Part shown: positions 1-14,300 of the stretch, piece after piece | Numbering within the stretch: position 1 is the first letter of the stretch | Layout: each line of letters opens with the position of its first letter | Origin: an uncultured archaeon | Lineage (GTDB): Archaea; Asgardarchaeota; Thorarchaeia; Thorarchaeales; Thorarchaeaceae | DNA length: 16,923 bases | Assembly (NCBI GenBank): GCA_964590575.1 | Contig: CAZPWM010000069.1 | Location: 1-16,923, forward strand | Direction: 5' to 3' | Translations under genes and position numbers: made by a program | Notes under the pieces: model-generated | The model's database searches: none | What the model was told of the DNA's origin: nothing | The model's input: the letters and a program-made list of their open reading frames with translations, nothing else

Positions 1-42
1 CGTATCATTGATGCTTTCACCACGATGCGCAATGCGGATTAA
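1..42 (+). CDS. possible 3' end of a gene entering from the left (RIIDAFTTMRNAD*)
   Basis: Frame 1 is open from the window edge to TAA at 40-42 and is followed by AT-rich intergenic-looking DNA. Too short to assign a product. Confidence 0.3.
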   Translation, partial: RIIDAFTTMRNAD

Positions 43-159
43 ATTCTAATCCAGTTGAAATTATTAATTCGGAATATTTACGAAAGAACAGCTCAATAAT
101 GGGGGTATCTTTCTTAACCCCCTATCTTTTTTTCGAGATGAGGCACAACTAGAAGAAGA

Positions 160-182
160 TGGCGGGCCAGACGGGAATTGAA
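160..182 (-). repeat. tRNA 3'-end fragment, copy 1 (att-like)
   Basis: Minus strand reads TTCAATT-CCCGT-CTGGCCC-G-CCA (T-loop, T-stem 3' strand, acceptor 3' strand, discriminator, CCA), then TCTT. 19/23 identical to the 3' end of the tRNA-Lys at 8922-8998. Lies 3 nt past the stop codon of the 186-572 gene. Confidence 0.85.
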
Positions 183-185
183 TCT

Positions 186-572
186 CTAGCCAATAGTGTA
201 GGATTCTCCTGGAGTATTGCACACACGATGATAGAGTTCAATTATCTCAGTTTTCGTTGAAGATCCAGCGATGAAGTCATTTCCTATACATACTCGTGGA
301 ATGGGTTTTCCATTCAATCTTTCATTTATTCTTTGAGCCAGAGACAACCGAGTGGTATCAATCAGTTCGATGTCAATTCCAAGTTCTTTTGCTGCAAGTT
401 CAGCGGAGGATGCTAAAGACATTGCCTCAGGGGGTACAACTTCTCTTGTTTCGTTAGTCTTTCCGAGTCTCTTGTCACACGAGTAACAGACAGCTTCCAT
501 ACCCCTCCTTCCCTTGAAACCACCTACTGTTGAGGATGAGAAAAAGACACGGATACTGAACTCATCAGACAT
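186..572 (-). CDS. thioredoxin/glutaredoxin-like fold protein (~128 aa)
   Basis: CxxC motif (CYSC) and a glutaredoxin-like cis-Pro strand motif (PIPRVCIGNDFIAG). Start moved from 686 to ATG 572 (MSDEF) because the longer ORF runs through tRNA-fragment copy 2. Confidence 0.6.
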   Translation of the reverse strand: MSDEFSIRVFFSSSTVGGFKGRRGMEAVCYSCDKRLGKTNETREVVPPEAMSLASSAELAAKELGIDIELIDTTRLSLAQRINERLNGKPIPRVCIGNDFIAGSSTKTEIIELYHRVCNTPGESYTIG

Positions 573-656
573 GTTACAGACCTCAATTGTTACTCCTTTA
601 GTAATATCAAAGATAAGGTCTAATTTCACAGCAATATGTAGGAACAATATGCACAA

Positions 657-679
657 TGGCGAGCCAGAAGGAATTTGAA
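657..679 (-). repeat. tRNA 3'-end fragment, copy 2 (more decayed)
   Basis: Minus strand reads TTCAAAT-TCCTT-CTGGCTC-G-CCA with the same spacing as the other copies. 17/23 identical to the tRNA-Lys 3' end. Lies 19 nt past the stop of the 699-1556 gene. Confidence 0.75.
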
Positions 680-698
680 AAGACAACTGCTACTGTAT

Positions 699-1556
699 TT
701 ATTGGATGCTAGGTGACACTGACTGCTCAGTTTGGCGTATCAATATAATCAGTAGAAAAAGTGCAATGCCATATGTGATGATATTTTCTAGTCCTTGCAA
801 TGATATGTTAAATAGAATGGGAAGGAAATTTAGAACAGCATGAGTCACACCCACAAGGTAGAGTGATCGTGTTTTTTCATATAGTAGTCCTATGAAACAA
901 AATAGTAAGAAACCTGAAATGATTCCTATGGGTGTCAGGGTTTGAACTAATCCATGAAAAATTACAAAGACCAATGTAACAGATATGATTCCAAATAGCC
1001 TACCATATTCCTCAACAGCCCGGGTTTGCAAATAGCCTCGAAACACAATCTCTTGCCAGAAACTATTCAACACATAGAACGTCATAGAGCTGACTAATGC
1101 ACTCAAGACTGGCCATTGACTGAAATTGGGAAAAATTGGGAGCGCTTGTGTGTCGAGAAATATTCCAAATATAATAGATCCAAAAAAGAGGCTCCACCCA
1201 ATAGCCAATCCAAATATCACGAATAGAAGGGTATTGCGCCATAGATTCAAACCAATGTCAGACAAGTGAAACTCATTTTTCTCAATGCGTGTAATTAAGG
1301 CGGCAACAAGTATGAGCATTAAGAGAATATCCAATGAACTCGCAATCGCCTGACCCTCTGATGATTCAGCTACAAAGATTTGCGCATTCTGAAAAGCAAC
1401 AGAAGATGACACCCCCTGCAAGATGAAGACCTGCTGGACTACAAGTATCAAACTGAATCTACTAATGACAATTAGCACAATGATCAGTATGAGAGTAATT
1501 GCAAGTTTCCATAAAAAGCGGATTTGTCCCGTATCTGTTCTGAGTACCCCTTCCAT
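699..1556 (-). CDS. CPBP (CAAX protease/Abi, Rce1-like) intramembrane glutamic endopeptidase family protein
   Basis: Multiple hydrophobic helices. CPBP motifs QEIVFR (normally EExxxR), FVIFH and HAVLN. Confidence 0.85.
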   Translation of the reverse strand: MEGVLRTDTGQIRFLWKLAITLILIIVLIVISRFSLILVVQQVFILQGVSSSVAFQNAQIFVAESSEGQAIASSLDILLMLILVAALITRIEKNEFHLSDIGLNLWRNTLLFVIFGLAIGWSLFFGSIIFGIFLDTQALPIFPNFSQWPVLSALVSSMTFYVLNSFWQEIVFRGYLQTRAVEEYGRLFGIISVTLVFVIFHGLVQTLTPIGIISGFLLFCFIGLLYEKTRSLYLVGVTHAVLNFLPILFNISLQGLENIITYGIALFLLIILIRQTEQSVSPSIQ

Positions 1557-1626
1557 GTTGATTAACCAGATGGTCTACATTGTTGTGATATAATAGACAA
1601 TAGGATTGAAGCAAGCTTTAGTAAGA

Positions 1627-1655
1627 TGGTGGGCCAGGGGGACTTGAACCCTCGA
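1627..1655 (-). repeat. tRNA 3'-end fragment, copy 3 (keeps T-stem 5' strand)
   Basis: Minus strand reads TC-GAGGG-TTCAAGT-CCCC-CTGGCCC-A-CCA, then TCTT. One base short in the T-stem 3' strand; discriminator is A. Confidence 0.85.
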
Positions 1656-1706
1656 ATATTTATTTCCAAGAGTATCTTCAAGTCAACAGGTAAGGAATTG
1701 ATGTGA

Positions 1707-2453
1707 ATGGACAAATGGAAGTACTATGACATTACACACAAGCATCATGTACTCTGTAATCCAATGCGTGAAGAGAAATTCGAACGATTTTGTCAACTTC
1801 TCAACCTACCAAAAGATGCTCGAATTCTTGATATCGCATGTGGAAAGGGAGAAGTCTTAGTCAGACTAGCAGAGAATTATGAAATTTCAGGGGTGGGAGT
1901 TGATCTATCTCCATTTTGTATCAATGATTGTAAGAAAAAACATCTCGAGAGAGTTCCTGAATCCGATTTAACCTTCATTGATTTGGATGGTGCAAAGTAT
2001 CGACCTGAATCTGGAGAACTATTTGATGTTGCAATGTGTTTGGGAGCAAGCTGGGTCTTTGAAGATCATGCTGGAACATTGAAAGCACTCAAGCAGATGA
2101 CAAAATCTGGAGGTCTTGTGATTGTTGGTGAACCTTTTTGGTTGAAGGAGCCTGATACTGAATATCTTGAGGTGACCAAAATGACTCGTAATTCTTTTCG
2201 ACCGCATGAAGATAATGTGTATCAAGGTGAAGAAATGGGACTCACATGCCTCTATACACTTGTGTCTAACAAAGATGATTGGGATCACTATGAAACTCTT
2301 CAGTGGTGGGCTGTTGACAATTATATTCAGTCGCATACGGATGATCTCGATAATCAGGAGCTTCTCGAGAAAACAAAGACTGCAAAAGATATCTACCTAA
2401 AATGGGGTAGAGATACTATCAGCTGGGGAGTATACATCTTCAGAAATCCGTAA
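1707..2453 (+). CDS. class I SAM-dependent methyltransferase, YjhP-like
   Basis: Motif I ILDIACGKG, motif II GVGVDLS, then FDVAMCLGASW and KSGGLVIVGEPFW. The N-terminal HH-VLCNP segment and 248-aa length resemble the E. coli YjhP family (from memory). Confidence 0.9.
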   Translation: MDKWKYYDITHKHHVLCNPMREEKFERFCQLLNLPKDARILDIACGKGEVLVRLAENYEISGVGVDLSPFCINDCKKKHLERVPESDLTFIDLDGAKYRPESGELFDVAMCLGASWVFEDHAGTLKALKQMTKSGGLVIVGEPFWLKEPDTEYLEVTKMTRNSFRPHEDNVYQGEEMGLTCLYTLVSNKDDWDHYETLQWWAVDNYIQSHTDDLDNQELLEKTKTAKDIYLKWGRDTISWGVYIFRNP

Positions 2454-2461
2454 AATCAAGA

Positions 2462-2484
2462 TGGCGGGCCAGGGGGGATTTGAA
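2462..2484 (-). repeat. tRNA 3'-end fragment, copy 4
   Basis: Minus strand reads TTCAAAT-CCCCC-CTGGCCC-G-CCA, then TCTT. 20/23 identical to the tRNA-Lys 3' end. Starts 8 nt after the methyltransferase stop. Confidence 0.9.
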
Positions 2485-2542
2485 ATCTTTGTTCCCTAAT
2501 AGAAATACAAGATGTCCTGCGTGATCTACTTCTAGAAGATTG

Positions 2543-2980
2543 TCAGATTTCATCTGCTATTTTGAGATGTTCCTTAGCTTCATCCATATCAGATTGATAC
2601 TGATTTGCTAAATCTATTTTTCCTTCCGACAGAGCAAGTCTCTTTCGTTTCCGGAGTGATTCAATGCGCATTCTATAGAGTACATCAGGAGTGTACTGAG
2701 GATTTGTGCCAGAAGTGGCAAAGTCTACTTGCATATACCTATCCTCGATTCCATACCATTTGTTCCTTCTCAAATCCCACTCCAATCCAATGAATATAAC
2801 CGCCAGAAAAAGAGTGAGTGCAGCAAATCCTTGAAACCAGAGAAAAGTAGTTTCACTGATACCTGAAATTCCAGACCAATTAAGTAGTAGAGAACCGAAT
2901 GATCCAATGCCAGAAAGAATTGCCATGATTAATGTAATATTACTCTTAATACTCGATTCTTCTCGAACTTCCTTGGTCAT
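2543..2980 (-). CDS. hypothetical membrane protein (2 predicted TM helices plus charged C-terminal helices)
   Basis: Two hydrophobic segments (about residues 15-35 and 47-67), ATG start, TATA-like box about 31 nt upstream. Confidence 0.7.
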   Translation of the reverse strand: MTKEVREESSIKSNITLIMAILSGIGSFGSLLLNWSGISGISETTFLWFQGFAALTLFLAVIFIGLEWDLRRNKWYGIEDRYMQVDFATSGTNPQYTPDVLYRMRIESLRKRKRLALSEGKIDLANQYQSDMDEAKEHLKIADEI

Positions 2981-3010
2981 AGTAACTCGTTTGAGTTATG
3001 TATTGAAACA

Positions 3011-3017
3011 ATATAAA
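3011..3017 (-). promoter_or_regulatory. putative archaeal TATA box (TTTATAT) for the 2543-2980 gene
   Basis: About 31 nt upstream of the ATG at 2980, which fits a leaderless or short-leader archaeal promoter. Confidence 0.45.
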
Positions 3018-3090
3018 TTGCAACCAAAGATTAATGACAATCTAGAGATAATTTGTTGCTAACTATCTGGAGTTAAAATCCACCAATTTT

Positions 3091-4179
3091 TCATTTAAAT
3101 TCGGGCCAAGGATAATCAGCTCTATCAAGTAATCGAATCAAGTCTGCAATAAACAAAATCAGGTATATTACAATCCTATCAACTTCATCCTTGGTAATTA
3201 TACCCATCGGTTTGTGTTTTGTTTTTTCAGTTCTTGCTTTCAGCGATTTGAAATACTCGATTAGATAATCGTGGCCTGCCTTTATTCCATGAATTTCTTC
3301 ATCACCATGACCTATTCCAATTCTTGATTTAATCCATGCTATTACCAGAGCTACTTTTCCAACTGTATCATCCTCCCTAGGTCGCACTTGCTCGTCAGGT
3401 AACATATCTTGTATTAGTAATATCTCGGTAAATCTTTGGAGTGTGTTTCGACAGGCATCTGCAGTAGCACGCCATTCTAGTTCGTTATTTGTTTCTTGCT
3501 GCCTAAGAACCATTTTTGTGATTTCATCAAATAATCTCGGATCAATGCGGGCTAACCTATTTGAAACCAAATCTTTTGTTTCGTCAAAGATATGTTGAAG
3601 AATTGGATGGAATTTAAGGGCAATTTGCTGAGTAATTAGATAATCATTAATCCTAGCACGTACTATGTGCAAGATTGAACGTAACCGATTTCTATCAATA
3701 ACGGAAGTTACTCTAATTTGGTCATCTTGTTGTTCTGGATTCTGTATAATTCGGAAAAGGGAAGGATTTTCTTTCAAATCCTCAATATATCCAATAGGAA
3801 ACGTAACATAGAACGGAACCTCGTATGGTATAAATCTAAATAACGCTCTCCAGAAAATGGAACGTTGTTCGATTGTGTCTAAAGAAGAATGTTTTTCAAT
3901 CATATCAAGAGGACCAAGGCCTATTGGCTTCCAATCATTAAGGTCATAACATCTATATTTGGGGATGAAGTGGTTTGTTGATTTTTGCCCTATAATAGAG
4001 GGATTTGGGTAGCCATTTAATTCAAAATTAATCCATTCTTCTGCATCTTTTGAGCCTATCAATTTTGAAATGTTGGAACATCGTAGAAGGAGTCTTGATA
4101 CTGAAGCCCCTTCAGTGTAAATTTCCTTTAATGTTTCCTCGATGAGGCTTAGGGCTTCGTCTATTCTATCATCTGGCAT
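3091..4179 (-). CDS. AbiTii-like N-terminal domain protein with a helical HEPN/Abi-like C-terminus (putative anti-viral)
   Basis: N-terminus VSRLLLRC..ISKLIG..DAEEWINFELNGYP...IPKYR matches the AbiTii pattern. C-terminus ADACRNTLQ...RTEKTKH (R-x5-H) is HEPN-like. Confidence 0.7.
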   Translation of the reverse strand: MPDDRIDEALSLIEETLKEIYTEGASVSRLLLRCSNISKLIGSKDAEEWINFELNGYPNPSIIGQKSTNHFIPKYRCYDLNDWKPIGLGPLDMIEKHSSLDTIEQRSIFWRALFRFIPYEVPFYVTFPIGYIEDLKENPSLFRIIQNPEQQDDQIRVTSVIDRNRLRSILHIVRARINDYLITQQIALKFHPILQHIFDETKDLVSNRLARIDPRLFDEITKMVLRQQETNNELEWRATADACRNTLQRFTEILLIQDMLPDEQVRPREDDTVGKVALVIAWIKSRIGIGHGDEEIHGIKAGHDYLIEYFKSLKARTEKTKHKPMGIITKDEVDRIVIYLILFIADLIRLLDRADYPWPEFK

Positions 4180-4295
4180 GGTTATATCGATTGAAACTGG
4201 ATGTCGTAATCAAACTTCCGATGTTTCACTTAAAAGATATTTTAGGCACTCTTCAATTCTATCACAAAAGGAATTCTTTTCAAGATTTCGAGCTA

Positions 4296-5246
4296 TTAAA
4301 AATAATCAACTAAATACAATTCAGATACTGCATCGAGTATACTTATTGGTAGAACAATGAGAAGCGGTATTGAAAAAATCACTGCCATTGTTGACAGGTG
4401 CTTCTTGAACCAGTTGCGAATAATTCCAATCATATTCACTAGTTCTGGAGGAATATTCTCCTCTTGCCATAGCATACTGATTGATTTCTCTAACAAATCC
4501 TTAATCTCTGAAAATAACTCATGATCGAATTTTCTAAGTGAAGGTTCAGGATTACCATGGGCAATCTTTCCTCTTAGTCGAACTAAGTAGGTAAGGAATT
4601 TTCTGTATCTCTGAATTTCAGATTTCATAAATTGATTTTGACAAATTTCTTCTATATTCAATGCATCATACAATGTTTGAATAAGTTGATTTGAGCCCAA
4701 ACGCCAAACATGACTGATTTCTGTAACCTTTGTTCTATCTCTTCCGTTCACTATTTCGTTATCAGTGATGTATTTCCCTATTAATCGTAAAATAGTTTCA
4801 GATTCTTTCAAACTAGATATTCGAGAATCTAGATAAGCATCAAGATATGCAGAGCTAGAAAGTGTTAGTAATGCTAGCAGTCTACGTATTTCTCTTCTCC
4901 CAAAAACTTTGGAAAGGTCTACTTCTTGATTTTGATCTGAAATAGAACTCATCAGTTTCAGAAACAATTCTAGTTCTTCGAATCCCTCGGTGGATTCGGA
5001 TTGTTTTTTCAGCTTTGGAATCTCACCTTTCTTCCATATACTAATCCATTCGTTTTGTACGAGGTTGATAGGCCAGGTCATGAAGCTCATTGCATTTACA
5101 AAATTCATTACATCTCCTATTTGTCTACCAAGTTTCTTCCCATTCTCGCTTGAAAAGAGAGCAGTATATTGGATTTCTTCCTTTGAACTATCGATAAATC
5201 TACGTATTTTACCTAATTTTTTCTCAAGAGCATTCGTCACTATCAT
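4296..5246 (-). CDS. HEPN-domain protein (putative RNase effector)
   Basis: R-x4-H motif in LVRLRGKIAHG (RGKIAH at 4557-4574), preceded by an acidic amphipathic helix (SAYLDAYLD). All-helical character. Confidence 0.65.
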   Translation of the reverse strand: MIVTNALEKKLGKIRRFIDSSKEEIQYTALFSSENGKKLGRQIGDVMNFVNAMSFMTWPINLVQNEWISIWKKGEIPKLKKQSESTEGFEELELFLKLMSSISDQNQEVDLSKVFGRREIRRLLALLTLSSSAYLDAYLDSRISSLKESETILRLIGKYITDNEIVNGRDRTKVTEISHVWRLGSNQLIQTLYDALNIEEICQNQFMKSEIQRYRKFLTYLVRLRGKIAHGNPEPSLRKFDHELFSEIKDLLEKSISMLWQEENIPPELVNMIGIIRNWFKKHLSTMAVIFSIPLLIVLPISILDAVSELYLVDYF

Positions 5247-5350
5247 CGCTCCTACAGTTTCCCAATGTAAGCAACGTATTTCATAATTACGAAATTTAGT
5301 GATTCTGTATCTCTGAAATCTTCAATTCTGTATGTGATAGAACCATCAAG

Positions 5351-6577
5351 TTAGTTTGATCCAATTTTATCTTGACTTTTCTTAGATACATAGACGGTTT
5401 TGTAATGATCCTTTTCGCGACGCCATTCCATTTGTATTGGAACCTGATCTTGAATTGGAGTAGATACAGCTGTTCCTAGTTGAATCGGTATAAGAAAATC
5501 TGAGAATCTTCTCTCATTTTCCAGTAATTTCGGAGCTGCTTTTTCAAGAAAGAACTCTCTAAGTTTGGTAAGAGCCTTAATACCATTTTTAATGATTTCA
5601 ACTTCGTTTTCTGTAATTTTCTTCTGCTTATGTACAATATCATTTCTAAGTAGCCATAGACAGGCAACTTCTTCACATTCCTCAGCCAAATTGGGAAGTT
5701 TAAGAGACCTTAACCATGGAGCAAACCCACTCTTCCTTTTTTGTCCCACATACTCTAGATAGATGTGAGATATTGCTTCAAGGGTTATTGCTGCGTTTAC
5801 AAGAGCTTCTTGATATCGTTTCTCTCTATTCTGATTTAATGCCCTTGCCCATTGAAGTTGGTGAAAATCGGGTTCTCCACTAGTTTGAAGTAAATCATTG
5901 AAAACTTGTGACTCGCCAATTTTCTTGACTCTTAAACGAGGATATGGAAAATCAGCCATCCTCTCGTCAGGTGTTATCTGAGTGGGATATAGATAATGTA
6001 TCCCGCCTGAAACCAAAGCAACAAGCAATCTTAACTTTGTTTCATAGAAGCTTACACTGCGTACTTCTCTGGTTGGATTGGATGGACTGATGAGAGTACA
6101 ATATTGGTCAAGAAATGAATTGATATCATTGAGAAGCTGATTGCATCTATCCTTGGAAACATGATGGAACACAATTTTATCCAGTTGTCTTTGCCATTCT
6201 TCTGTACCTGCCTTTGCAGATATCTTAGCTTGACTGATTGTTATTCCTCGTGTAATTGTTGTTTTCATCTTCCTCTTATGATGATAGATTTTTGATTTTC
6301 CAGTAATTCTATTTAGGAACTTGTGGTAGTATTTTCTAGAATTTCCTGTTATGCGATCTAAATATTCCTGATCATCTACCTGTGTTTCATTGACAATAAA
6401 TTCAAACGGTCTATCAATTGGTCCGTCAATTAAGTTACCTGTTATGACTAACCAGAAATCATTTCTAAACGAGAATTCCCGATTAGAGTCTAGGGAGTAT
6501 GTTCCTGATTCAATTGAAATCCAGAAAGGTAGTTCAATGGTTAGGTATACCGTTATGTCGGGTGAGTCGCTTGACAT
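5351..6577 (-). CDS. C-terminal HEPN-domain protein (ApeA-like architecture, putative RNase effector)
   Basis: HEPN helix YQEALVNAAITLE and R-x4-H motif RNDIVH (5630-5647) after a beta-rich N-terminal region. ATG 6577 preferred over TTG 6601. Confidence 0.7.
   Translation of the reverse strand: MSSDSPDITVYLTIELPFWISIESGTYSLDSNREFSFRNDFWLVITGNLIDGPIDRPFEFIVNETQVDDQEYLDRITGNSRKYYHKFLNRITGKSKIYHHKRKMKTTITRGITISQAKISAKAGTEEWQRQLDKIVFHHVSKDRCNQLLNDINSFLDQYCTLISPSNPTREVRSVSFYETKLRLLVALVSGGIHYLYPTQITPDERMADFPYPRLRVKKIGESQVFNDLLQTSGEPDFHQLQWARALNQNREKRYQEALVNAAITLEAISHIYLEYVGQKRKSGFAPWLRSLKLPNLAEECEEVACLWLLRNDIVHKQKKITENEVEIIKNGIKALTKLREFFLEKAAPKLLENERRFSDFLIPIQLGTAVSTPIQDQVPIQMEWRREKDHYKTVYVSKKSQDKIGSN
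6275..6364 (-). repeat. intragenic 45-bp (15-aa) tandem duplication
   Basis: YLDRITGNSRKYYHK / FLNRITGKSKIYHHK, 9/15 residues identical. Confidence 0.8.
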
Positions 6578-6672
6578 TTTAATCACTATACTAATGTTCA
6601 ATTGACATCATAAGCTCGAAATCCTATATACACTCTGCTCGGATTGTAATCTAAAAATTAATGAAAATTAAA

Positions 6673-6691
6673 TGGCGGGCCAGGGCGGATT
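6673..6691 (-). repeat. tRNA 3'-end fragment, copy 5 (T-loop truncated)
   Basis: Minus strand reads AAT-CCGCC-CTGGCCC-G-CCA. 16/19 identical to the tRNA-Lys 3' end. Intergenic. Confidence 0.8.
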
Positions 6692-6742
6692 TTTGGGCGA
6701 CTAATTGAGAAGCCATATATGATTTGATTATTCACTGCTGTT

Positions 6743-7025
6743 ATGGTTGAATTTGATGCTAAACTGTTTTCAGTACTCACAGAGAAGGTAGTTCACGATG
6801 CTTTGCAGGGGAGACCAGTACAAGACCACGAAACAGTATTCCTCGATTCTGCTTTTTTTGGTTAGTTTCTTTGATATTGGTAATGAATCGATGAAAAAAG
6901 CAGAATTTAAAGAAGTACTAGTTGCAATGAAGGATTATGGACTTACCGGATGTCAAGTTATACAACTGACTTCATTCGGTCTTGATGAAAGTGATTTGAC
7001 AAGAGAGAAGATAATTGTCATGTAG
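6743..7025 (+). pseudogene. frameshifted small gene, PIN/VapC-like N-terminal motif
   Basis: ATG 6743 frame (MVEFDAK...ETVFLDSAF) stops at 6865. Removing one T from the T7 run (6853-6859) joins it to the 6798-7025 frame, giving TVFLDSAFLVSFFD, similar to the PIN first-strand motif. TATA-like CATATAT about 25 nt upstream. Confidence 0.4.
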
Positions 7026-7110
7026 CTTGTTGATGCTTTTACAGTCCCAAAGAAAGGAGAGAACAAGGTCAATCATTCATCTGTGGTGAAGTGAGGGATT
7101 TGGATTATTC

Positions 7111-8034
7111 TCAGGTCGTGCTGTAAACTAGTTGAAGAAAGATATCCAAAAGGAGGTCCACATTTGCTGCAACAGTTGCAGTAATAGAAATTGGCTGGTT
7201 ATCCTTCAAGTGAGAGGTGTTTTTTCTCACCTTGTTTAGCTCACTAGCTAACCAAGATTCCAATGTTCCCTCTTTCAAAACTCTCAACTGACGTGAGGCA
7301 CCGACCAACTGTCCAAGTGTGAAGTCATCTAGGTTTTTCCCTTGATAATTAGCTTCTCGAATTTCATTCCATTTGGTTTCATCGAGGATTGTTATAGGCC
7401 TAACTTGATCTTTAAGCACTTCTTCAAGCAGCAGGGATGCACATCTTATGGATTCTGACCAGTTACTTTGCCAGAGAGCGATTTTGTAATCTTGAACCTT
7501 ACTCCAAAGGTGTGCGGAAATATTCGATGCAAAGAGAGGCGCGGGTGCGTTTAACGCATCTCTTCCTCTTGAAGTCAAATACATCTCTTTGAACTCATTT
7601 TTCTTGATTAAGCCTAAGACCGTCAATTTCCTTAGTCTATTTCCTAATTCCAAACGTGATGGAAGAATATTTTCTTCTAGAACAATTTCATTAAGTTTGA
7701 CCAAGTTTCCACATACATCATCTAAGCAATCCAGAAGTTCCCTATCTATCGAATCAATTAGAACATAGGTGGGTTTTCGTGAAGATATCATTTCGAGAGT
7801 TTTGTCTTCTGGAGGAGAGAATATCGATTCTAACAGTTTTTTCTGTATGCGCCAATTCATTCCCTCAAATATTATTACAGACAAATCCCACATACCAACA
7901 ATAATGAGGAACAATGGTCTGAAATCAATTTCATAAATTAGCAATGGGTTCGACCCCCATAGGATAATGAATACCATGGTCAAAATGAATGCCCAGACGG
8001 TATAATCTCTACGGACCAATTTCCTATTACTCAT
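7111..8034 (-). CDS. 2xTM + winged-helix + HEPN-like protein
   Basis: Two N-terminal TM helices. wHTH signature LGNRLRKLTVLGLI...MYLTSRG. HEPN-like ESIRCASLLLEEVLK...TLGQLV...RKNTSH (7210-7227). ATG 8034 has a GAGGA RBS and is preferred over TTG 8055. Confidence 0.7.
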   Translation of the reverse strand: MSNRKLVRRDYTVWAFILTMVFIILWGSNPLLIYEIDFRPLFLIIVGMWDLSVIIFEGMNWRIQKKLLESIFSPPEDKTLEMISSRKPTYVLIDSIDRELLDCLDDVCGNLVKLNEIVLEENILPSRLELGNRLRKLTVLGLIKKNEFKEMYLTSRGRDALNAPAPLFASNISAHLWSKVQDYKIALWQSNWSESIRCASLLLEEVLKDQVRPITILDETKWNEIREANYQGKNLDDFTLGQLVGASRQLRVLKEGTLESWLASELNKVRKNTSHLKDNQPISITATVAANVDLLLDIFLQLVYSTT

Positions 8035-8113
8035 TGAAATTCCTCTAACTGCCAAAGACCTAGGCTTTCCTTAAAACTTCCACAGCTCGAATTTTCCGAG
8101 ATAAGTCATTATC

Positions 8114-8650
8114 TCACTCGGGATGATTTTGTTTCAGTCTTTCAATAGTTGCCCATGACTCTCTTGTCGTATGCTCAGAAGCCAGCCAGTCATAAAGAAC
8201 ACTATCCTGTACAAGTCGAAATGTTCTCTGTAGTAAGTTGATTGGAATTGCTATCTGGAATTGATGATCTGAAACAATGTGTTTCAGCATAACTCTCCAT
8301 GATGTCCTGAGGTTGATTCCCTTTTGCCCGGCATGTTTGATTCTATCAATTACACCAAAATCTTCGAGTAGTCTGAGTTGACGTCTTGTGCTCCTCTCAC
8401 CCACGTCTGAGAGTCTATTGATGTGTTGAAGAAGTAGAGGTCGATTATTGGTTAGCAAAGCGGGTAAAATGCCGCTCTCCAGTGTTATCCTTAATATACG
8501 AAAGAGGTCAGTAGTAATTTCTGACTTAGTTGCCGAACTTGTTCTATGATGTTCAATGATGTAGTGAAGGAGATACTCTATTCGAAGTATCTCATCTATG
8601 GATTTCTGCCCACCTTTCCAGCCTGCAATCGATGTGGTTTCCTTTTGCAA
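8114..8650 (-). CDS. winged-helix DNA-binding protein (putative regulator)
   Basis: HTH-wing pattern LSDVGERSTRRQLRLLEDFGVIDR. The TTG start is uncertain. Confidence 0.55.
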   Translation of the reverse strand: MQKETTSIAGWKGGQKSIDEILRIEYLLHYIIEHHRTSSATKSEITTDLFRILRITLESGILPALLTNNRPLLLQHINRLSDVGERSTRRQLRLLEDFGVIDRIKHAGQKGINLRTSWRVMLKHIVSDHQFQIAIPINLLQRTFRLVQDSVLYDWLASEHTTRESWATIERLKQNHPE

Positions 8651-8880
8651 TCAATATTCCTTGATTCTTGACCACAGGTTGCACGAACACTAACAATTGA
8701 TGATACTATTAGGTTAGGTATCTTCGCTCCACCTAACGATTTCAAGAAGAGAGCCGTTCTGAAACGATTGATGGTTAACAGACCATTGCTTGTTGCTAAA
8801 GCTGTAAGAAACCTAACTAAGGATAACGTTGAATTTGATGTGTGGTGGAATTGAGTTCGAATTACATTCTTGGAATATTC

Positions 8881-8894
8881 CGAAACCTCTATAA
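8881..8894 (+). promoter_or_regulatory. putative BRE/TATA promoter of tRNA-Lys
   Basis: CGAAA (BRE-like) followed by CTCTATAA, about 28 nt upstream of the tRNA 5' end. Confidence 0.55.
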
Positions 8895-8921
8895 CATGAA
8901 ATGGAGCAGATGCGAAAACAC

Positions 8922-8998
8922 GGGCCGGTGGCTCAGTCAGGTAGAGCGACAGGCTCTTAACTTGTTGGTCGCGGGTTCGAATCCCGCCCGGCCCGCCA
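8922..8998 (+). tRNA. tRNA-Lys(CTT), intronless, encoded CCA
   Basis: Full cloverleaf: acceptor GGGCCGG/CCGGCCC, D-stem GCTC/GAGC, anticodon stem ACAGG/CTTGT with loop CT-CTT-AA (anticodon 8956-8958), T-arm GCGGG-TTCGAAT-CCCGC, discriminator G, CCA. Confidence 0.97.
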
Positions 8999-9063: not shown

Positions 9064-11214
9064 TCAACTAGTCCGTCCAGGAACGACACTGGATTGTTGA
9101 ACATGAATTATATTACGTGCTGCATTGATGTCAGCGTGGAAATGTTCATCACATTTTGAGCAGTAGAAGAACTCTCCTCCTTTTTTCTCGGATTGAGAGG
9201 CTACATCCACAACTCGAATCCCTCGTTCACCGCACTGATGGCAGGTCTGACTGGTGTATCTTGGGTTCACAGTCCACACACTGTATCTACAGTGGCCAAG
9301 GGACTCTCTCATGTATCTCACTGTTTCGATGATTTTTCCCCAGAGGTTCACTCCTAGAAACCAAGAGAGATTGTCCATACCTCCACGAGCTTGAAAGCTC
9401 CGAAGGTCTTCGAAGAACAACTTCTTTACTCTATGTTCTTCACAAAACCAGACAGTCCTTGAAGCAATCTGTCGGGCAATCTCTCGATCAAGACGACGAA
9501 ACTTACTCCACAGTGCACCAACATGTCTATCTCTCTTGAGAACAGGTGCTGGGTGTGACTGTCCTGACCGTTTCTTGTCCCAGTTATTCTTCTTTCTGTC
9601 CAGTTCAGAGGTTAGTCTTGAAGCATGCTTCCTGATTCGTTCTCTCTTCTCAACCAGATTTCCTACTGTGATGAGCATATCAACAAAGGAAGCATCTTTC
9701 TCAACAGACAGTGCCACAGGAGCTCGTATACCCCTATCAGCTCCAGCATGATTGTCATACTCTCGCTTCCCCATGATTAATGAGCTAACCTCACCATTAG
9801 GAGAGAGAAAAGGAATCTGGAGAGTGACTCTATTACCCCTGAGAAGGAGTCGTGGCGGAGCACTCCTGCGGGCATTCCTCAGTTGACTCACCCTTTGCTG
9901 TAAGAGGGTTATTTCTTCTGTGTCTGATTCGCTTCTTCCCTTCATCTTTGACAACTGATATGCAGAGTGTTGAAACTCAATCGTGTTCATCAGCTGATTA
10001 TACATGTCTTCGAACTTTGCTGCTCTGAATCTTAGTTGTTCTACTCTTTGACTGGCGCTAAAGTTCATTGCATCATCAGCTTTTTTCTTATCTGTAAAAC
10101 TTGCTCTTGGAAGCCAGTTCAAGAACCGAAACGTTAGTGTCCTTGAACCATATGGAGATTGCTCGTTATCCACTCCATCAATTCCAGGTGGGATCTTGAG
10201 ATGGAGGAGAATCTCGTTTTCCTTCTTCTCATCAACAGTGAACCAGTAACCTTGACTCACTGTATTCTCAGTTGATGCAGAGAAGTCCAAGCTGTAGTTC
10301 CTGAGTATTGGTACCGTGGACGGATACCCGTTCTTTTTCCAGCTTTGAACCTGACTCATAACGAGCTTTTCAACACTCTGCATCTCAGAGGAGTTCTCCT
10401 TCAATAGAGAGATTATCTTGGTCCGCTGATGTCTTCGCTGGTGAGTTTTGATGCCATGATGGTCGAGAATGTGACAATCGAGAGCAAATCGAATCTGCCG
10501 AAGAACTCCGAGAGCATAGTGGTATCCCGCACCATTGTTCCTCACAGCTTCGCACCGGTCCCTCACCTTTCTCAGTAGGAAGTTCGGGATTCTCTTCTTA
10601 TCTAGAAGAGATAGCACATTGTTGGTTGATTCACTCAGATAGGCGATTGCAGCCTTGACAAGTTGTCTTCTAGTCCAGTCTGTGAGGATGATCCTCCCAG
10701 CTTGTTCCAGGGCGTTTCTGTGGAGTCGACCATAGGTCAACTCCTTGAAGTCTTGGTTGTTCTGATAACAGATGTCTGGCTCACTCCTCAGAAGGTTGTA
10801 TGCACGACCTCGATATTCCGAGAGCTTCTTCCCAAGTTGTTCTGCATACTCTGTATTCTTGTAGACCTTCTCAAGAACAAGGTTGACAGTAGAAACATAC
10901 TGTTTGAAGGTTGACTCAAGGATACTAAGGTCGGTTTCCCGTACCTTCCTTCCTGTACTTCCAGCGATTGAGAGAATCTGTTGGGCACTACTTTTGCTCT
11001 TCTTTGAGAAGGAGGGGTCTGGTCGTCGGTTCTTTCCTTTTCGAGAGATGACTCTGTCAGAAGAATTGAGAGAGAATGACTCGACGAGGTACTTCAGACC
11101 AGTCTTCGGTGTTCCTGATGATGAGTATATAAATTTGTCATCAATTGTCTGTTGCTCTTCAGCCATAGACTGAGTCTGCTTCCGGTGATGACGCCGGATT
11201 GTTTCTTTTGTCAT
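9064..11214 (-). CDS. tnpB: large TnpB/Cas12-like RuvC nuclease (716 aa)
   Basis: RuvC-I AGADRG (D493), bridge-helix-like basic coiled segment, RuvC-II LFFEDL (E602), zinc ribbon VNPRYTSQTCHQC...CSKC, RuvC-III HADINAARNI (D695). GGTGA RBS at 11218-11222. Confidence 0.9.
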   Translation of the reverse strand: MTKETIRRHHRKQTQSMAEEQQTIDDKFIYSSSGTPKTGLKYLVESFSLNSSDRVISRKGKNRRPDPSFSKKSKSSAQQILSIAGSTGRKVRETDLSILESTFKQYVSTVNLVLEKVYKNTEYAEQLGKKLSEYRGRAYNLLRSEPDICYQNNQDFKELTYGRLHRNALEQAGRIILTDWTRRQLVKAAIAYLSESTNNVLSLLDKKRIPNFLLRKVRDRCEAVRNNGAGYHYALGVLRQIRFALDCHILDHHGIKTHQRRHQRTKIISLLKENSSEMQSVEKLVMSQVQSWKKNGYPSTVPILRNYSLDFSASTENTVSQGYWFTVDEKKENEILLHLKIPPGIDGVDNEQSPYGSRTLTFRFLNWLPRASFTDKKKADDAMNFSASQRVEQLRFRAAKFEDMYNQLMNTIEFQHSAYQLSKMKGRSESDTEEITLLQQRVSQLRNARRSAPPRLLLRGNRVTLQIPFLSPNGEVSSLIMGKREYDNHAGADRGIRAPVALSVEKDASFVDMLITVGNLVEKRERIRKHASRLTSELDRKKNNWDKKRSGQSHPAPVLKRDRHVGALWSKFRRLDREIARQIASRTVWFCEEHRVKKLFFEDLRSFQARGGMDNLSWFLGVNLWGKIIETVRYMRESLGHCRYSVWTVNPRYTSQTCHQCGERGIRVVDVASQSEKKGGEFFYCSKCDEHFHADINAARNIIHVQQSSVVPGRTS

Positions 11215-11391: not shown

Positions 11392-14300
11392 ATGTTTGTT
11401 TTAATGAAAAACGCTGAATTCCCAAAAAACCCAGGGAGGGTTCTCACCAAAGCCCTCCAGTTAGGCCTCACAGCAGTGGCATATCTAGCGAGAACAAGAG
11501 TGACAAAGACCACAAGACACCTCTACTGGGGTGGGAAGGGGCGAAAGGGAATCAGACATATCCTGAAGGAAGGTCTCTCAGAGTACCGACAGTCTGTGAG
11601 GGAGAGAAGACCCGATGCAAAATACCTGCAACGAATCGAAAACAACGTCCGACGCAGCCACAACAAGATTGTCCTGAATGCATCGGTCCGTTATGGCAAT
11701 GTGGAAGAGAAGCGGAGGAGAAGGAACGAGGATCGAAAATACATCAATATCCTTGCAGATTACTATGGAGCAAAGATTAGAAACATTGGTGCAGTGGAGT
11801 TCTCCTTTCCAGAACCCATGTTGATGGAAGCCAGCGATGGCAGTAAGAAACGAGTCTACCCAGGAAACACTCGCGTGCCAGAGTATGTGCCGACCCACAC
11901 TGCTCCTGAGCTCGACTTCATGGATATGATCAGGGGCTACGGTATCGAACTCGCAAGACAGTGTATGAGATACTCTGTTCCAATGAGAGAGGCAAAGCGA
12001 TACCTTGACAGACTCATTAATCGCCTCATGCCATACCTCGAGTATGTATACACTGAGGGAAAGAGGGGAAAGAAGGGGTTCATTCATGGAGGTGCACAAG
12101 AGCTCAGGGAGATTGTCAGAGAGATTCAGGCACTCTACGGGGGTATGAATGGTAGACCACCATCAATCACTGGAGAGGTTTCAGGATATAGGCAAGTTGA
12201 AACATCAAAAATGCCTGATGCTTTGGATGTTTCAATTCCTGACGAATTCTTTCAATCATCCTTGGTAGAGGATGATGAGTCAAGGGAGGCGGATGTTTTA
12301 GATCCAAAGGATAAAAGTGAGGATGAGTTAGACACCTTCTTCTCTGATATCATATCCAAGTGTGATGTGAACCTGCATCCAGAGTGGAAACCGCATGTGG
12401 AAAAGATCCAATCACTGATTGATGAGAGGATACTCACTCGGACTGATGCGGAGAATGTGTTACAGAAACTGCTGGAAGACAGTAGGATGATGGGTTCAGC
12501 CTTCCATGACTTCATTGCTAATTCTGAATTCTCAGTCAGACCCTTCTCACTTTTTGCTCCAATCAGGCACGGGGACCAGATGGTCACTGAAGAAACCCCC
12601 TTCCTGTTCACTTGCGAAGTGACTATAGCCAACGGAAGAGGGCGGGTCGACATCCTCGTCTTTCGGAAAAAGAACCTAGAGAAGGCTGATGAGTCGAAAG
12701 AAGACACCATATGGGAACCGTTCATTCTCATCGAAGTCAAGACCAAGTGTTTCTATCAGCTTGATTTGTACGCGACAACGACGAGGTCTAAGGACAAGAG
12801 CTGTCGAGTCATAGAGCCAGTCATAGAGAGAAGAAAATCAGACGATTCTGAGTGGGAGGAGGTTATCAACTCAACACCGGATGACTATGGGAAGGACCAA
12901 CTGAAGGCGTACGAGAAAGAGGTGCTTTCTGCATACAATAGATTCGCACGGAGCGATTCCAACCCTCCTGATAGACTAATGAAAGGAGTGCTCATCGTTG
13001 ACCTGAAAGAGAACTGGGAAACTCTCAGGACGTGCATTAGAGATTTCATTCTTGAGGCTTATCACAAATATCAGAATGATGGTGATTCAGAAAGACAGTT
13101 CTTCTTTCCCATTTTTGAGGGGAGCAGTCCAAGAATGGGGCTTGTATTATACAGCGGCTGCAATACCAGAGATGCCACTCTAGTTGAGAGAGTTCAAGAG
13201 TTCAATCCCGTTCTATATTCAAGACAACGGGATGATGACAGAGAGTTTATTCTGTATCTCACAGTATCAGGGAAAGGGTCTCCCTCCGCATCTGCAGCAG
13301 GGATTGCAGCCAGATGGCATGGACTAAGTTTCATTCATGAACGAGTGAAAGGGAAACATAGAGATGTTGTGTGGTTTGATTTATCTGGCGAATTGAAGAA
13401 TCGGACATTAAGGAAACAAAGTTTTCGCGCTGGGCTTCAGTCAAAGAGTGTCCAGAGATTTCTGAGAGAAAGAATAACCTTTGCTGATGTGTCAGAGTCC
13501 TTCTCATCTTATGCCAATGGGATGCGTGCCCTTAATGCAATGATTGAAGAGATAGATGAAAATCTCAAAAACAAGAGTAAGCCCTTTATCGTTGTTACAG
13601 GTATGGATAGAATTAGAGCGACTATTCAAAGACAGAGGTTGCCTCTGCTTGATGAGTTTTTGTCTTGGATTCTCGAAGGACTGCCTTCTCATTCAACGCT
13701 ATTATGGTTTGACAGTCCTGTACCAGTGAGTAAGACGAGTCAAAAGTATGACACCCGATGCGTGGCACCATTCTATCCAAACAGTCCATGGGTTCGTTTC
13801 GTCGATGAGGTTGTCTACAATCTTCCTATGGCTCCAAGGAGATACGGGTCCTATGTTCCTGTAGAGGATGACATCAGATGGCTAGCGATTGAGAGTATAA
13901 ATAGCATCCAGATTGATTCTGTGTTGATTCCACCTCTATACAAGTGGGGAGAGAGATTCAGACCTGATAGTAATCGTGAAGAAAATATCGACAGTCGACA
14001 GGAGTTCTACTTGAGAGGCAACTATGCTTCCATAAGGCAGGGATATCGAACACACTACAGTGAGTCTGATCAAAACGAGATATTGGAGCTAGTCCCACAT
14101 CTTAGAAGGTTCTATCAGACATATGAACGGGAGGAGAGAAATATCACTATTCAGCAGAGAAAACTCCCGACAACAATCTCTAATGCACCATCCCTTCTTT
14201 CGAGGATCGTCTTCAGACCATATCAGTATTTGACCTCTGTTGATGCTGATGACCGTATCAAGAAACTTGACCCGTTAGCGAAGGTGAATCACGCACGAGA

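Follow-up and report, generated by a model that had tools for sequence, protein, structure and literature searches.

The stretch of DNA analysed here, which we call the window, is the entire 16.9-kb contig C69 (CAZPWM010000069.1; 16,923 nt) of a Thorarchaeota genome of 3.40 Mb, which is assembled in 194 contigs, is 91% complete and has a GC content of 0.435. The left part of the window carries an array of short genes punctuated by copies of the 3′ end of a tRNA gene. We describe repeats of tRNA origin at which the units of the array begin and end, differences between species in the order and content of those units, and the recent spread of one single-gene unit between species.

Repeats and units of the array

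A search of the window for TGGYGRGCCAG, allowing at most one mismatch, gave six matches, compared with a mean of 0.34 and a maximum of two in 200 shuffled windows, none of which reached six. Five of the matches are exact and co-oriented, at 160, 657, 1627, 2462 and 6673 on the plus strand, with the tRNA sense on the minus strand; the sixth, at 8988–8998 on the opposite strand, belongs to a real tRNA-Lys(CTT) gene. The five copies and their spacings of 497, 970, 835 and 4211 bp are as given in an earlier note on this DNA. Read on the minus strand, the repeats correspond to tRNA positions 54–76, comprising the T-loop, the 3′ strands of the T-stem and the acceptor stem, the discriminator base and the encoded CCA. 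Every copy is followed by a pyrimidine-rich tail resembling a tRNA terminator. The sequences on the 5′ side of the copies are mutually unrelated, and most repeats lack the complementary 5′ strands of the T-arm and acceptor stem. The copies are also degenerate, with weight-matrix scores between 14 and 45.

Individually, all five being on the minus strand, repeat c1 (160–182) covers positions 54–76 of tRNA-Lys(CTT) with a score of 35.2, c2 (657–679) scores 31.2, and c4 (2462–2484), the best copy, scores 43.4. Repeat c3 (1627–1648) has a 1-nt deletion and is preceded, in the tRNA sense, by GAGGG, the 5′ strand of a T-stem, which travels with the adjoining unit 3 even where the T-stem of the host differs. 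Repeat c5 (6673–6715) consists of 3′-exon positions 57–76 (6673–6692) and a relic of a T-loop intron (6693–6715). It lacks the 5′ part of the T-loop, and the 23 nt found there match the 3′ part of the T-loop intron in the tRNA-Lys genes of relatives. Comparison with two of these (L011 and L012) identifies c5 as an end displaced from a tRNA-Lys gene that bore an intron.

The repeat is not scattered across the genome, as the earlier note had allowed that it might be. The looser form CTGGC[CT]C[AG]CCA has eight matches, five of them on the window contig, and a weight matrix detected two further, weaker copies on contig C90. Since the last 55 bases of C90 equal window positions 1–55, the array continues onto that contig, where it ends at a flank carrying the genes for Fur and peroxiredoxin. 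The GC content is 0.34–0.40 across the left 8.9 kb of the window, as against 0.42–0.47 to the right of the tRNA gene.

The three small units hold one gene each, in either orientation, with stop codons 3, 19 and 8 nt from a repeat for units 1, 2 and 3, respectively, in agreement with the earlier note. The unit 1 gene (186–572, minus strand) encodes 128 aa from an ATG, or 166 aa from an upstream TTG from which it reads through c2. No protein family was found for it beyond our own family F4 of the arrays of relatives, and its homologues at seven other loci are 66–84% identical. Unit 2 (gene at 699–1556, minus strand) encodes a 285-aa membrane protease of the Rce1-like/CPBP family (PF02517, 2.2e-13), with homologues of 69–79% identity at 11 loci, and unit 3 (gene at 1707–2453, plus strand) a 248-aa S-adenosylmethionine (SAM)-dependent methyltransferase.

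Unit 4 (2485–6672), the unit nearest the head of the array, is 4.2 kb long with a GC content of about 0.35 and carries four co-oriented genes, all on the minus strand. Two of them, at 2543–2980 and 5351–6601, are of unknown function; a third encodes an AbiTii protein (3091–4179; PF18864, 2.2e-14) and the fourth gives a weak match, below the Pfam cut-off, to HEPN RiboL-PSP (4296–5246). No homologue of unit 4 was present in any fetched locus, and in its composition it looks like a small foreign defence island.

As a separate observation, contigs of runs X2, X4 and X5 that match unit 4 rightwards from 2472 turn, on their left, into a hairpin-like sequence rather than the acceptor part of c4, and others matching rightwards from 499 carry a different left sequence, beginning inside the unit 1 gene. 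These divergent contigs may be strain variants or assembly fold-backs.

Exchange of units between species

The first point to note is that BLAST matches of units 1–3 in other species run from the first base after one CCA to the next CCA. When the units were aligned with 120-nt flanks (8, 9 and 11 full-length instances of units 1, 2 and 3, respectively), mean pairwise column identity was about 0.3 outside the unit, 0.65–0.8 from the upstream repeat onwards, and fell again after the downstream repeat, an edge blurred by alignment gaps. The order of the units also varies: in the tRNA sense it is 3-2-1 in the window, 3-1-2 in L059, 2-3 in L019, 1-3 in L030 and 1-2 in L018. The earlier note had asked whether cargo homologues are flanked by the same motif elsewhere, and for units 1–3 they are. 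Relatives likewise do not show a fixed synteny across the repeats, but gain, loss and reordering exactly at them, with the three units in different orders and neighbourhoods.

Unit 3 is 95–97% identical at the nucleotide level to at least nine other loci, and 25 loci carry it at 90% identity or more. Among the genomes sharing it, the flanking genes (Fur, peroxiredoxin, family F26, an amino-acid kinase and a GT4 glycosyltransferase) are only 72–88% identical to those of the closest sampled genome. Because the unit is so much more similar than the flanking core genes, the comparison indicates that unit 3 has spread recently between species as a one-gene unit. Its gene is intact in all 18 of the 18 open reading frames (ORFs) of 248 aa, with dN/dS values of 0.12–0.51 in 16 comparisons. 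In arrays headed by an intact tRNA, unit 3 holds the first rank at six of ten loci, the second at three and the third at one. In run X7, from an independent study, the unit 3 contig has a depth of 33.7, as against 4–6 for its window neighbours, and it diverges from the window at 1639 and 2488, positions that fall within c3 and c4 or at their edges.

A census of the 53 loci with two or more co-oriented copies yielded 83 distinct units with a median length of 938 bp, 60 of them no longer than 1.5 kb. Counting ORFs of at least 70 aa, 50 units contain one, 12 none and 21 two to five. Amongst the one-gene units, 34 genes lie against the tRNA sense and 16 along it, and units keep 30–110 nt upstream of their genes. 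The cargo of the arrays includes methyltransferases, CPBP proteases, GNAT acetyltransferases, DinB-like proteins, S41 and M29 peptidases, an acyl-CoA dehydrogenase, beta-helix surface proteins, arginase, a beta-lactamase fold, an old yellow enzyme, a protein kinase and, in our reading of the sequence, a nitronate monooxygenase-like protein. Defence functions are represented by AbiTii, AbiV-HEPN, OLD-like ATPase-TOPRIM, Schlafen AlbA_2 and PD-(D/E)XK proteins. A set of 53 metagenome stretches with the core pattern again contained arrays and housekeeping flanks, with no integrase.

Parent tRNA genes, T-arm introns and chromosomal frame

In relatives of the same genus, the tRNA-Lys(CTT) gene starts with GGGCCAG and ends with TTCAAATCCCTCCTGGCCCGCCA, and co-oriented copies of that end follow it. 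On this comparison, the parent of the repeats is the tRNA-Lys(CTT) gene of this Thorarchaeota genus. The parent tRNA that the earlier note had suggested looking for at the end of the array was found in relatives, where an intact tRNA-Lys(CTT) heads the arrays, but in the window the array is headed by the intron and 3′-exon relic c5. The sole intact, intron-less tRNA-Lys(CTT) of the window (8922–8998, plus strand) is separated from c5 by 2.2 kb and is encoded on the other strand than the array, with the acceptor GGGCCGG/CCGGCCC; it ends in CCGGCCC as against CTGGCCC in the array repeats. None of the 32 tRNA matches in this genome ends in CTGGCCC-R-CCA. The 50 nt upstream of the intact gene are common to the tRNA-Lys genes of relatives. 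An inverted intact tRNA-Lys(CTT) also occurs in L060, L074 and L119, where the acceptor, GGGCTGG/CCAGCCC, is again unlike the CTGGCCC of the array repeats. As the acceptor of the inverted gene differs from the repeats, the array would therefore have lost its matching intact target. No hybrid junction is visible that would record an inversion between c5 and the intact tRNA, the acceptor and T-stem of which pair consistently. Two side observations concern the tRNA genes of this genome: nearly all of those found encode the 3′ CCA and many carry introns of about 30 nt, and a tRNA-Sec gene lies on contig C120.

The array sits within a conserved frame, in which eIF2alpha, MazG and SHMT genes are followed by the tRNA, the array and then the genes for Fur, peroxiredoxin, an amino-acid kinase and a GT4 glycosyltransferase. 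The variable zone is almost empty in L098 (about 0.5 kb), L118 and L040, and at its longest it exceeds 15 kb. In the genus, the repeats form the joints of a hypervariable insertion zone between tRNA-Lys(CTT) and the conserved Fur/peroxiredoxin flank. The core pattern, which also matches two other tRNAs, was found in all 28 genomes of the genus, and by our reading of the matches a single contig bears at least two co-oriented Lys-type copies in 18 or more of the 28.

The tRNA-Lys(CTT) genes of the genus contain one to four introns, located in the D-loop, the anticodon stem, the canonical position 37/38, the variable region and the T-arm; the intron-bearing loci include L011, L012, L016, L019, L022, L031, L059, L064 and L067. 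Reading the positions against the intron-less form, without a splice-site program, we find a T-arm intron in 16 of 21 distinct genes: ten at 56/57, four at 53/54 and two at 58/59. T-arm introns are likewise present in tRNA-Leu genes that head arrays. These positions coincide with the left edge of the repeated block. Relics that retain intron sequence are found within arrays as well (c5 in the window, 12428 on C90, 5608 in L016 and 10402 in L031), and some insertions would therefore have crossed over 5′ of the intron; the relics fit a crossover in or just before the T-loop. There is an existing idea that introns shield tRNA genes from integration. Intron gain and the scattering of tRNA fragments have also been linked to integration in archaea (Sugahara et al. 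2012, PMC3293823).

The phenomenon is wider than the earlier note had it: it recurs at tRNA-Leu genes, is found throughout the genus and extends to at least two others. When 31 tRNAs of this genome were tested for extra copies of their final 20 nt, only Lys, Leu and perhaps one further tRNA had them. Contig C19 (22487–24650, minus strand) carries five perfect tRNA-Leu 3′ 20-mers delimiting four one-ORF units (627, 475, 510 and 422 bp), headed by an intact tRNA-Leu(GAG) with an intron between positions 53 and 54. About 190 nt upstream of this gene there is a tRNA-Leu 5′ fragment ending exactly at position 53. Contig C4 (7541–8438) has one extra copy of the 20-mer behind another tRNA-Leu. On C11 (51530–52800), a tRNA with an odd T-loop region is accompanied by a copy of its 20-mer, with two mismatches, 1.2 kb downstream on the same strand, and is possibly a third hotspot.

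The Leu 20-mer, which several tRNA-Leu genes share, was matched in 28 of 28 genomes of the genus, and co-oriented Leu clusters were found in 22 of 23 stretches that had been picked for multiple matches. The Leu cores are mostly perfect, and by our reading the block shared by these stretches is 22 nt long, from T55 to A76, with position 54 variable. Only 20 of the 179 ORFs on the tRNA-Leu stretches have any match in the Lys loci; for the 56 that lie in arrays the figure is five, all at 28–71% identity. Separate Lys and Leu cassette pools are expected if the att site of a cassette ties it to one tRNA. Beyond the genus, Lys-type arrays occur in two other genera of the family, g22 (G063:C7, three copies) and g25 (G071:C47, three; G077:C82, five; G085:C5, three). 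Overall, 72 of 87 genomes of the class have a core match, and at the stringency of the search most other genera have one copy.

The remainder of the window contains neighbours of the array. The 2.2-kb stretch between the array head and the intact tRNA (6716–8921) holds ORFs at 6798–7025 (plus strand), 7111–8055 (minus strand) and 8114–8650 (minus strand; a weak helix-turn-helix match), for which no family and no homologue in the fetched loci was found. Tail-to-tail with the tRNA-Lys gene is a gene for a 716-aa TnpB/Cas12f-like protein (9064–11214, minus strand), which we count as a neighbour, and beyond it a giant ORF (11392–16797, plus strand) encodes 1801 aa with no Pfam match. The trio of tRNA, TnpB and giant gene is also present in L060, L015 and L119. 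It recalls the ‘aloposons’ of Heimdallarchaeum, which carry giant genes and use tRNA sites for integration (PMC8813620).

Mechanism, rival explanations and known systems

Our preferred explanation, which we hold to be probable with moderate confidence, is that cassettes with a tRNA-3′-end att site are inserted serially at the tRNA gene by a site-specific recombinase that acts in trans. A module would exist transiently as a DNA circle with an att site mimicking the tRNA 3′ end. The recombinase would join this circle to the tRNA gene by a crossover within the T-loop or immediately 5′ of it, thereby regenerating the tRNA, leaving the displaced 3′ end behind the module and pushing older modules outward. 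Any stretch between two copies could leave again. The circular intermediate, the enzyme and the crossover point are all inferred. Tyrosine integrases that use the T-loop sublocation reportedly (Williams, 2002) leave as their footprint a block of identity that spans the T-loop and everything 3′ of it, and we count the shape of the repeats in favour of the proposal. Metagenome-assembled genomes (MAGs) often lose episomes, and it is possible that a trans-acting integrase resides on an unbinned element. Of the idea in the earlier note, the integrase-less and mostly one-gene modules are supported, while the stacking of cassettes in trans by one recombinase remains an inference.

A number of results weigh against this explanation. 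No integrase, resolvase or transposase domain, TnpB excepted, was detected in the 74 Pfam-scanned proteins of arrays and flanks, and this genome (91% complete) gave no match to PF00589, PF16795 or Cas1 (PF01867) and none at the level of XerA. The tyrosine integrase that the earlier note had suggested looking for at the array end was not found in the window proteins, in this genome or in any array. Across the 28 genomes of the genus, nine have a PF00589 match, eight a resolvase match and 17 neither, and no tyrosine recombinase or resolvase match falls on an array contig. Of 15 stretches carrying a tyrosine recombinase, none holds a tRNA or a tRNA-3′-end-like site. The core pattern has no match in viral contigs; none of 39 full-length metagenome contigs has the overlapping ends of a circular form; and no excision or circle joint was seen in the contigs of runs X2, X4, X5 and X7, although rare forms would escape detection in contigs. 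The T-stem 5′ strand expected of a symmetric core site is missing from most cassette-side arms. T-stem variants were shared at a frequency of 0.16 in the background, 0.28 between cores with the same downstream unit, 0.34 within a locus and 0.43 between cores with the same upstream unit, figures confounded by relatedness, and the linkage of these variants to genome, upstream unit or downstream unit did not fix the crossover point. Finally, repeats further from the tRNA score only slightly lower (Spearman correlation of score with rank −0.23, p = 0.18, n = 35); this weak and non-significant distal degeneration is no argument against maintained sites.

Several minor observations arose from these searches. 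This genome has one small resolvase, on C123, and a weak XerA-like match on C42 is to a 234-aa protein in which only the N-terminal part matches. The two joints listed in the run contigs lie in the tRNA-Lys region and come from the contig of a relative. A PADLOC search returned no integrase. A protein-atlas look-up of a 314-aa ORF gave a best score of 0.80, which is a lead only, and three proteins of about 375 aa from Leu arrays proved unrelated to each other in pairwise comparison. A PF00589 tyrosine recombinase was not found in 19 of the 28 genomes of the genus, and the route of chromosome dimer resolution is not evident from our searches.

The arrays might be the remains of ordinary islands, in which large viruses or plasmids carrying an integrase integrated serially and then lost the integrase and most of their genes. 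Tandem integration and integrase loss have been described for archaea in a review, and an account of tRNA-adjacent Prochlorococcus islands (bioRxiv 10.1101/2020.12.28.424599) describes scattered partial tRNAs and new elements pushing older ones outward. The long tRNA pieces and intron relics at c5, C90 12428, L016 5608, and L126 6207 and 8844 are what elements with long att sites would leave, and unit 4, with its 4.2 kb, four genes and low GC content, would pass for such a foreign island. Random decay, however, is not expected to arrive repeatedly, in many species and in different neighbourhoods, at one and the same single-gene remnant with identical ends, and it does not account for a one-gene unit that is 95–97% identical across species with core genes 12–28% different. 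Nor did the 74 scanned proteins include an integrase fragment, and the median unit is 938 bp. We regard decay as quite unlikely to explain the arrays. An explanation at the level of RNA, in which the copies are 3′ exons of a split tRNA-Lys, used alternatively or by trans-splicing, or else signals for processing or termination of the genes nearby, seems to us highly improbable. It would draw on the shared block being the 3′ exon of the gene form with a T-loop intron (positions 57–76), on the terminator-like tail after every copy and on stop codons 3–19 nt from a copy. The sequences 5′ of the copies are nevertheless unrelated with no common splicing-motif helix evident, genes of one-gene units face both ways (34 versus 16), the copies are degenerate, and the reordering and horizontal spread of units are left without an account. 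Specifically for a split tRNA, no matching 5′ piece was found in the window, which does contain an intact tRNA-Lys(CTT) gene (8922–8998).

It is also conceivable, if in our estimate unlikely, that no classical site-specific recombinase is involved. Units could be moved, deleted and inserted by short-homology recombination between the 20–23-bp copies and the tRNA, for example as Campbell-type insertion of circles that arise between two copies. Alternatively, an integrase making staggered cuts at tRNA 3′ ends could duplicate 20–22 bp of the host at each insertion, in the manner of casposases and Cas1-Cas2, whose targets are shorter or of similar length. Canonical recombinases are missing from 17 of the 28 genomes of the genus, though all 28 have core matches and, by our reading, at least 18 have co-oriented Lys-type copies, as such a route would allow. 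The Lys and Leu arrays are built alike, their repeated blocks beginning at the same point of the tRNA (position about 55–57), the Leu cores are mostly perfect, and host-derived duplication or conversion would give the observed excess of T-stem variant sharing within a locus. Genome relatedness confounds that excess, however, and the GAGGG that accompanies unit 3 into hosts with a different T-stem argues for an att site borne by the cassette rather than duplicated from the host. The Lys and Leu cassette pools hardly overlap, this genome has no Cas1 match, and 20 bp is short for homologous recombination, which as a general process would not single out the 3′ ends of a few tRNAs.

Three further candidates were considered and set aside. 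As the TnpB-like gene ends 65 nt from the tRNA, the TnpB guide might have been the antisense of the tRNA 3′ end; the block conserved among TnpB-linked loci ends about 28 nt before the CCA, and a guide of 16–20 nt would fall in the spacer rather than the tRNA. Reverse transcription primed by a tRNA, with 18–22 nt copied from the primer that would look like the repeat, predicts only antisense genes and only transcribed sequence, but 16 of the 50 one-gene units face the other way and the units include upstream regions. A partitioned integrase of the SSV type was suggested by ORFs reading through c1–c3, but the genes encode a methyltransferase and a CPBP-like protease, and PF16795 is absent.

Whilst the arrays work like an integron, as the earlier note proposed, they are not members of the integron family, and of the known systems they are closest to tRNA-island accretion. 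The resemblance to integrons lies in arrays of small, mostly one-gene cassettes ending in site-like repeats, in order and content that vary between close relatives, in horizontal spread and in the flavour of the cargo (GNAT, DinB, methyltransferase, small membrane proteins and defence genes). In contrast to integrons, there is no IntI gene by the array, with no PF00589 match in the window proteins or this genome and only housekeeping genes flanking the arrays of relatives. The repeats are tRNA 3′ ends, most without complementary 5′ strands, rather than attC palindromes, as judged by sequence. The cassettes face both ways and keep their own upstream regions, with no sign of a common promoter Pc, and insertion takes place at a tRNA gene that is functional. 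Classical integrons in archaeal MAGs are said by Ghaly et al. (2022) to use IntI and attC.

[quoted passage not shown] Such islands differ in that the units here are 0.4–1.5 kb, contain one gene, lack an integrase and are reordered between species, and in that most genomes of the genus show no detectable tyrosine recombinase. Elements that are flanked by att sites, have no integrase and are mobilised by a helper are known from cis-mobilisable elements (CIMEs) and site-specific accretion and from the Xer-using IMEX. They too are att-bounded modules without a recombinase of their own, arranged in tandem at one site and needing an enzyme in trans, but they are bacterial, multi-gene and tied to a helper integrative and conjugative element or to XerCD/dif, whereas here no helper or Xer was found and many units have one gene. 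Insertion of the casposon or Cas1 type is set apart by the lack of a PF01867 match in this genome. ‘Gene capture’ by integrating elements has reportedly been described in archaea by She et al. (2001). That phenomenon and the disruption of tRNA genes described by Sugahara et al. 2012 (PMC3293823) have in common with our arrays the use of tRNA genes as integration sites, the fragments left behind and the tie of intron gain and scattering to integration. They concern single elements with a recombinase, whereas the arrays here are genus-wide, multi-unit and without one, and have T-arm introns exactly at the left repeat edge. Tycheposon islands (bioRxiv 10.1101/2020.12.28.424599) also lie beside particular tRNA genes, push older elements inward, scatter partial tRNAs and carry niche and defence cargo; they differ in having their own tyrosine or large serine recombinase, often replication genes and several kb of cargo, whereas no recombinase or replication domain was seen in the 74 scanned proteins here and a unit is typically a single gene. 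In the literature, supplementary files aside, we found no description of such arrays in Asgard archaea.

A more far-reaching reading, which we offer as tentative and rather doubtful, is that a subset of Thorarchaeota possesses a dedicated gene-capture system at the tRNA 3′ exon (T-loop to CCA; Lys-CTT and Leu), which moves one-gene cassettes between species with an enzyme outside the tyrosine and serine families or by a recombinase-free route, and for which the T-arm introns (53/54, 56/57, 58/59) would be scars or shields. If true, it would allow the long-standing idea of tRNA introns as a protection against integration to be tested directly. In any case, the locus ties a concrete recombination junction to non-canonical T-arm introns, and because the junction coincides with such introns in the same tRNA genes, the hypotheses of protection from integration and of intron gain become testable on natural variation.

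Gene exchange in the Asgard archaea, the closest known relatives of eukaryotes, is poorly known. At the locus described here, individual accessory genes come, go and change places from one species to the next, with joints of 20–23 bp as the fixed points. Since no known recombinase accompanies the arrays in most genomes, they either reveal the extent to which MAGs miss episomes or point to a novel enzyme. The arrays amount to an integron-like flexible gene pool built on tRNA genes, with a cargo of methyltransferase, membrane protease, acetyltransferases, hydrolases and Abi/HEPN defence genes.

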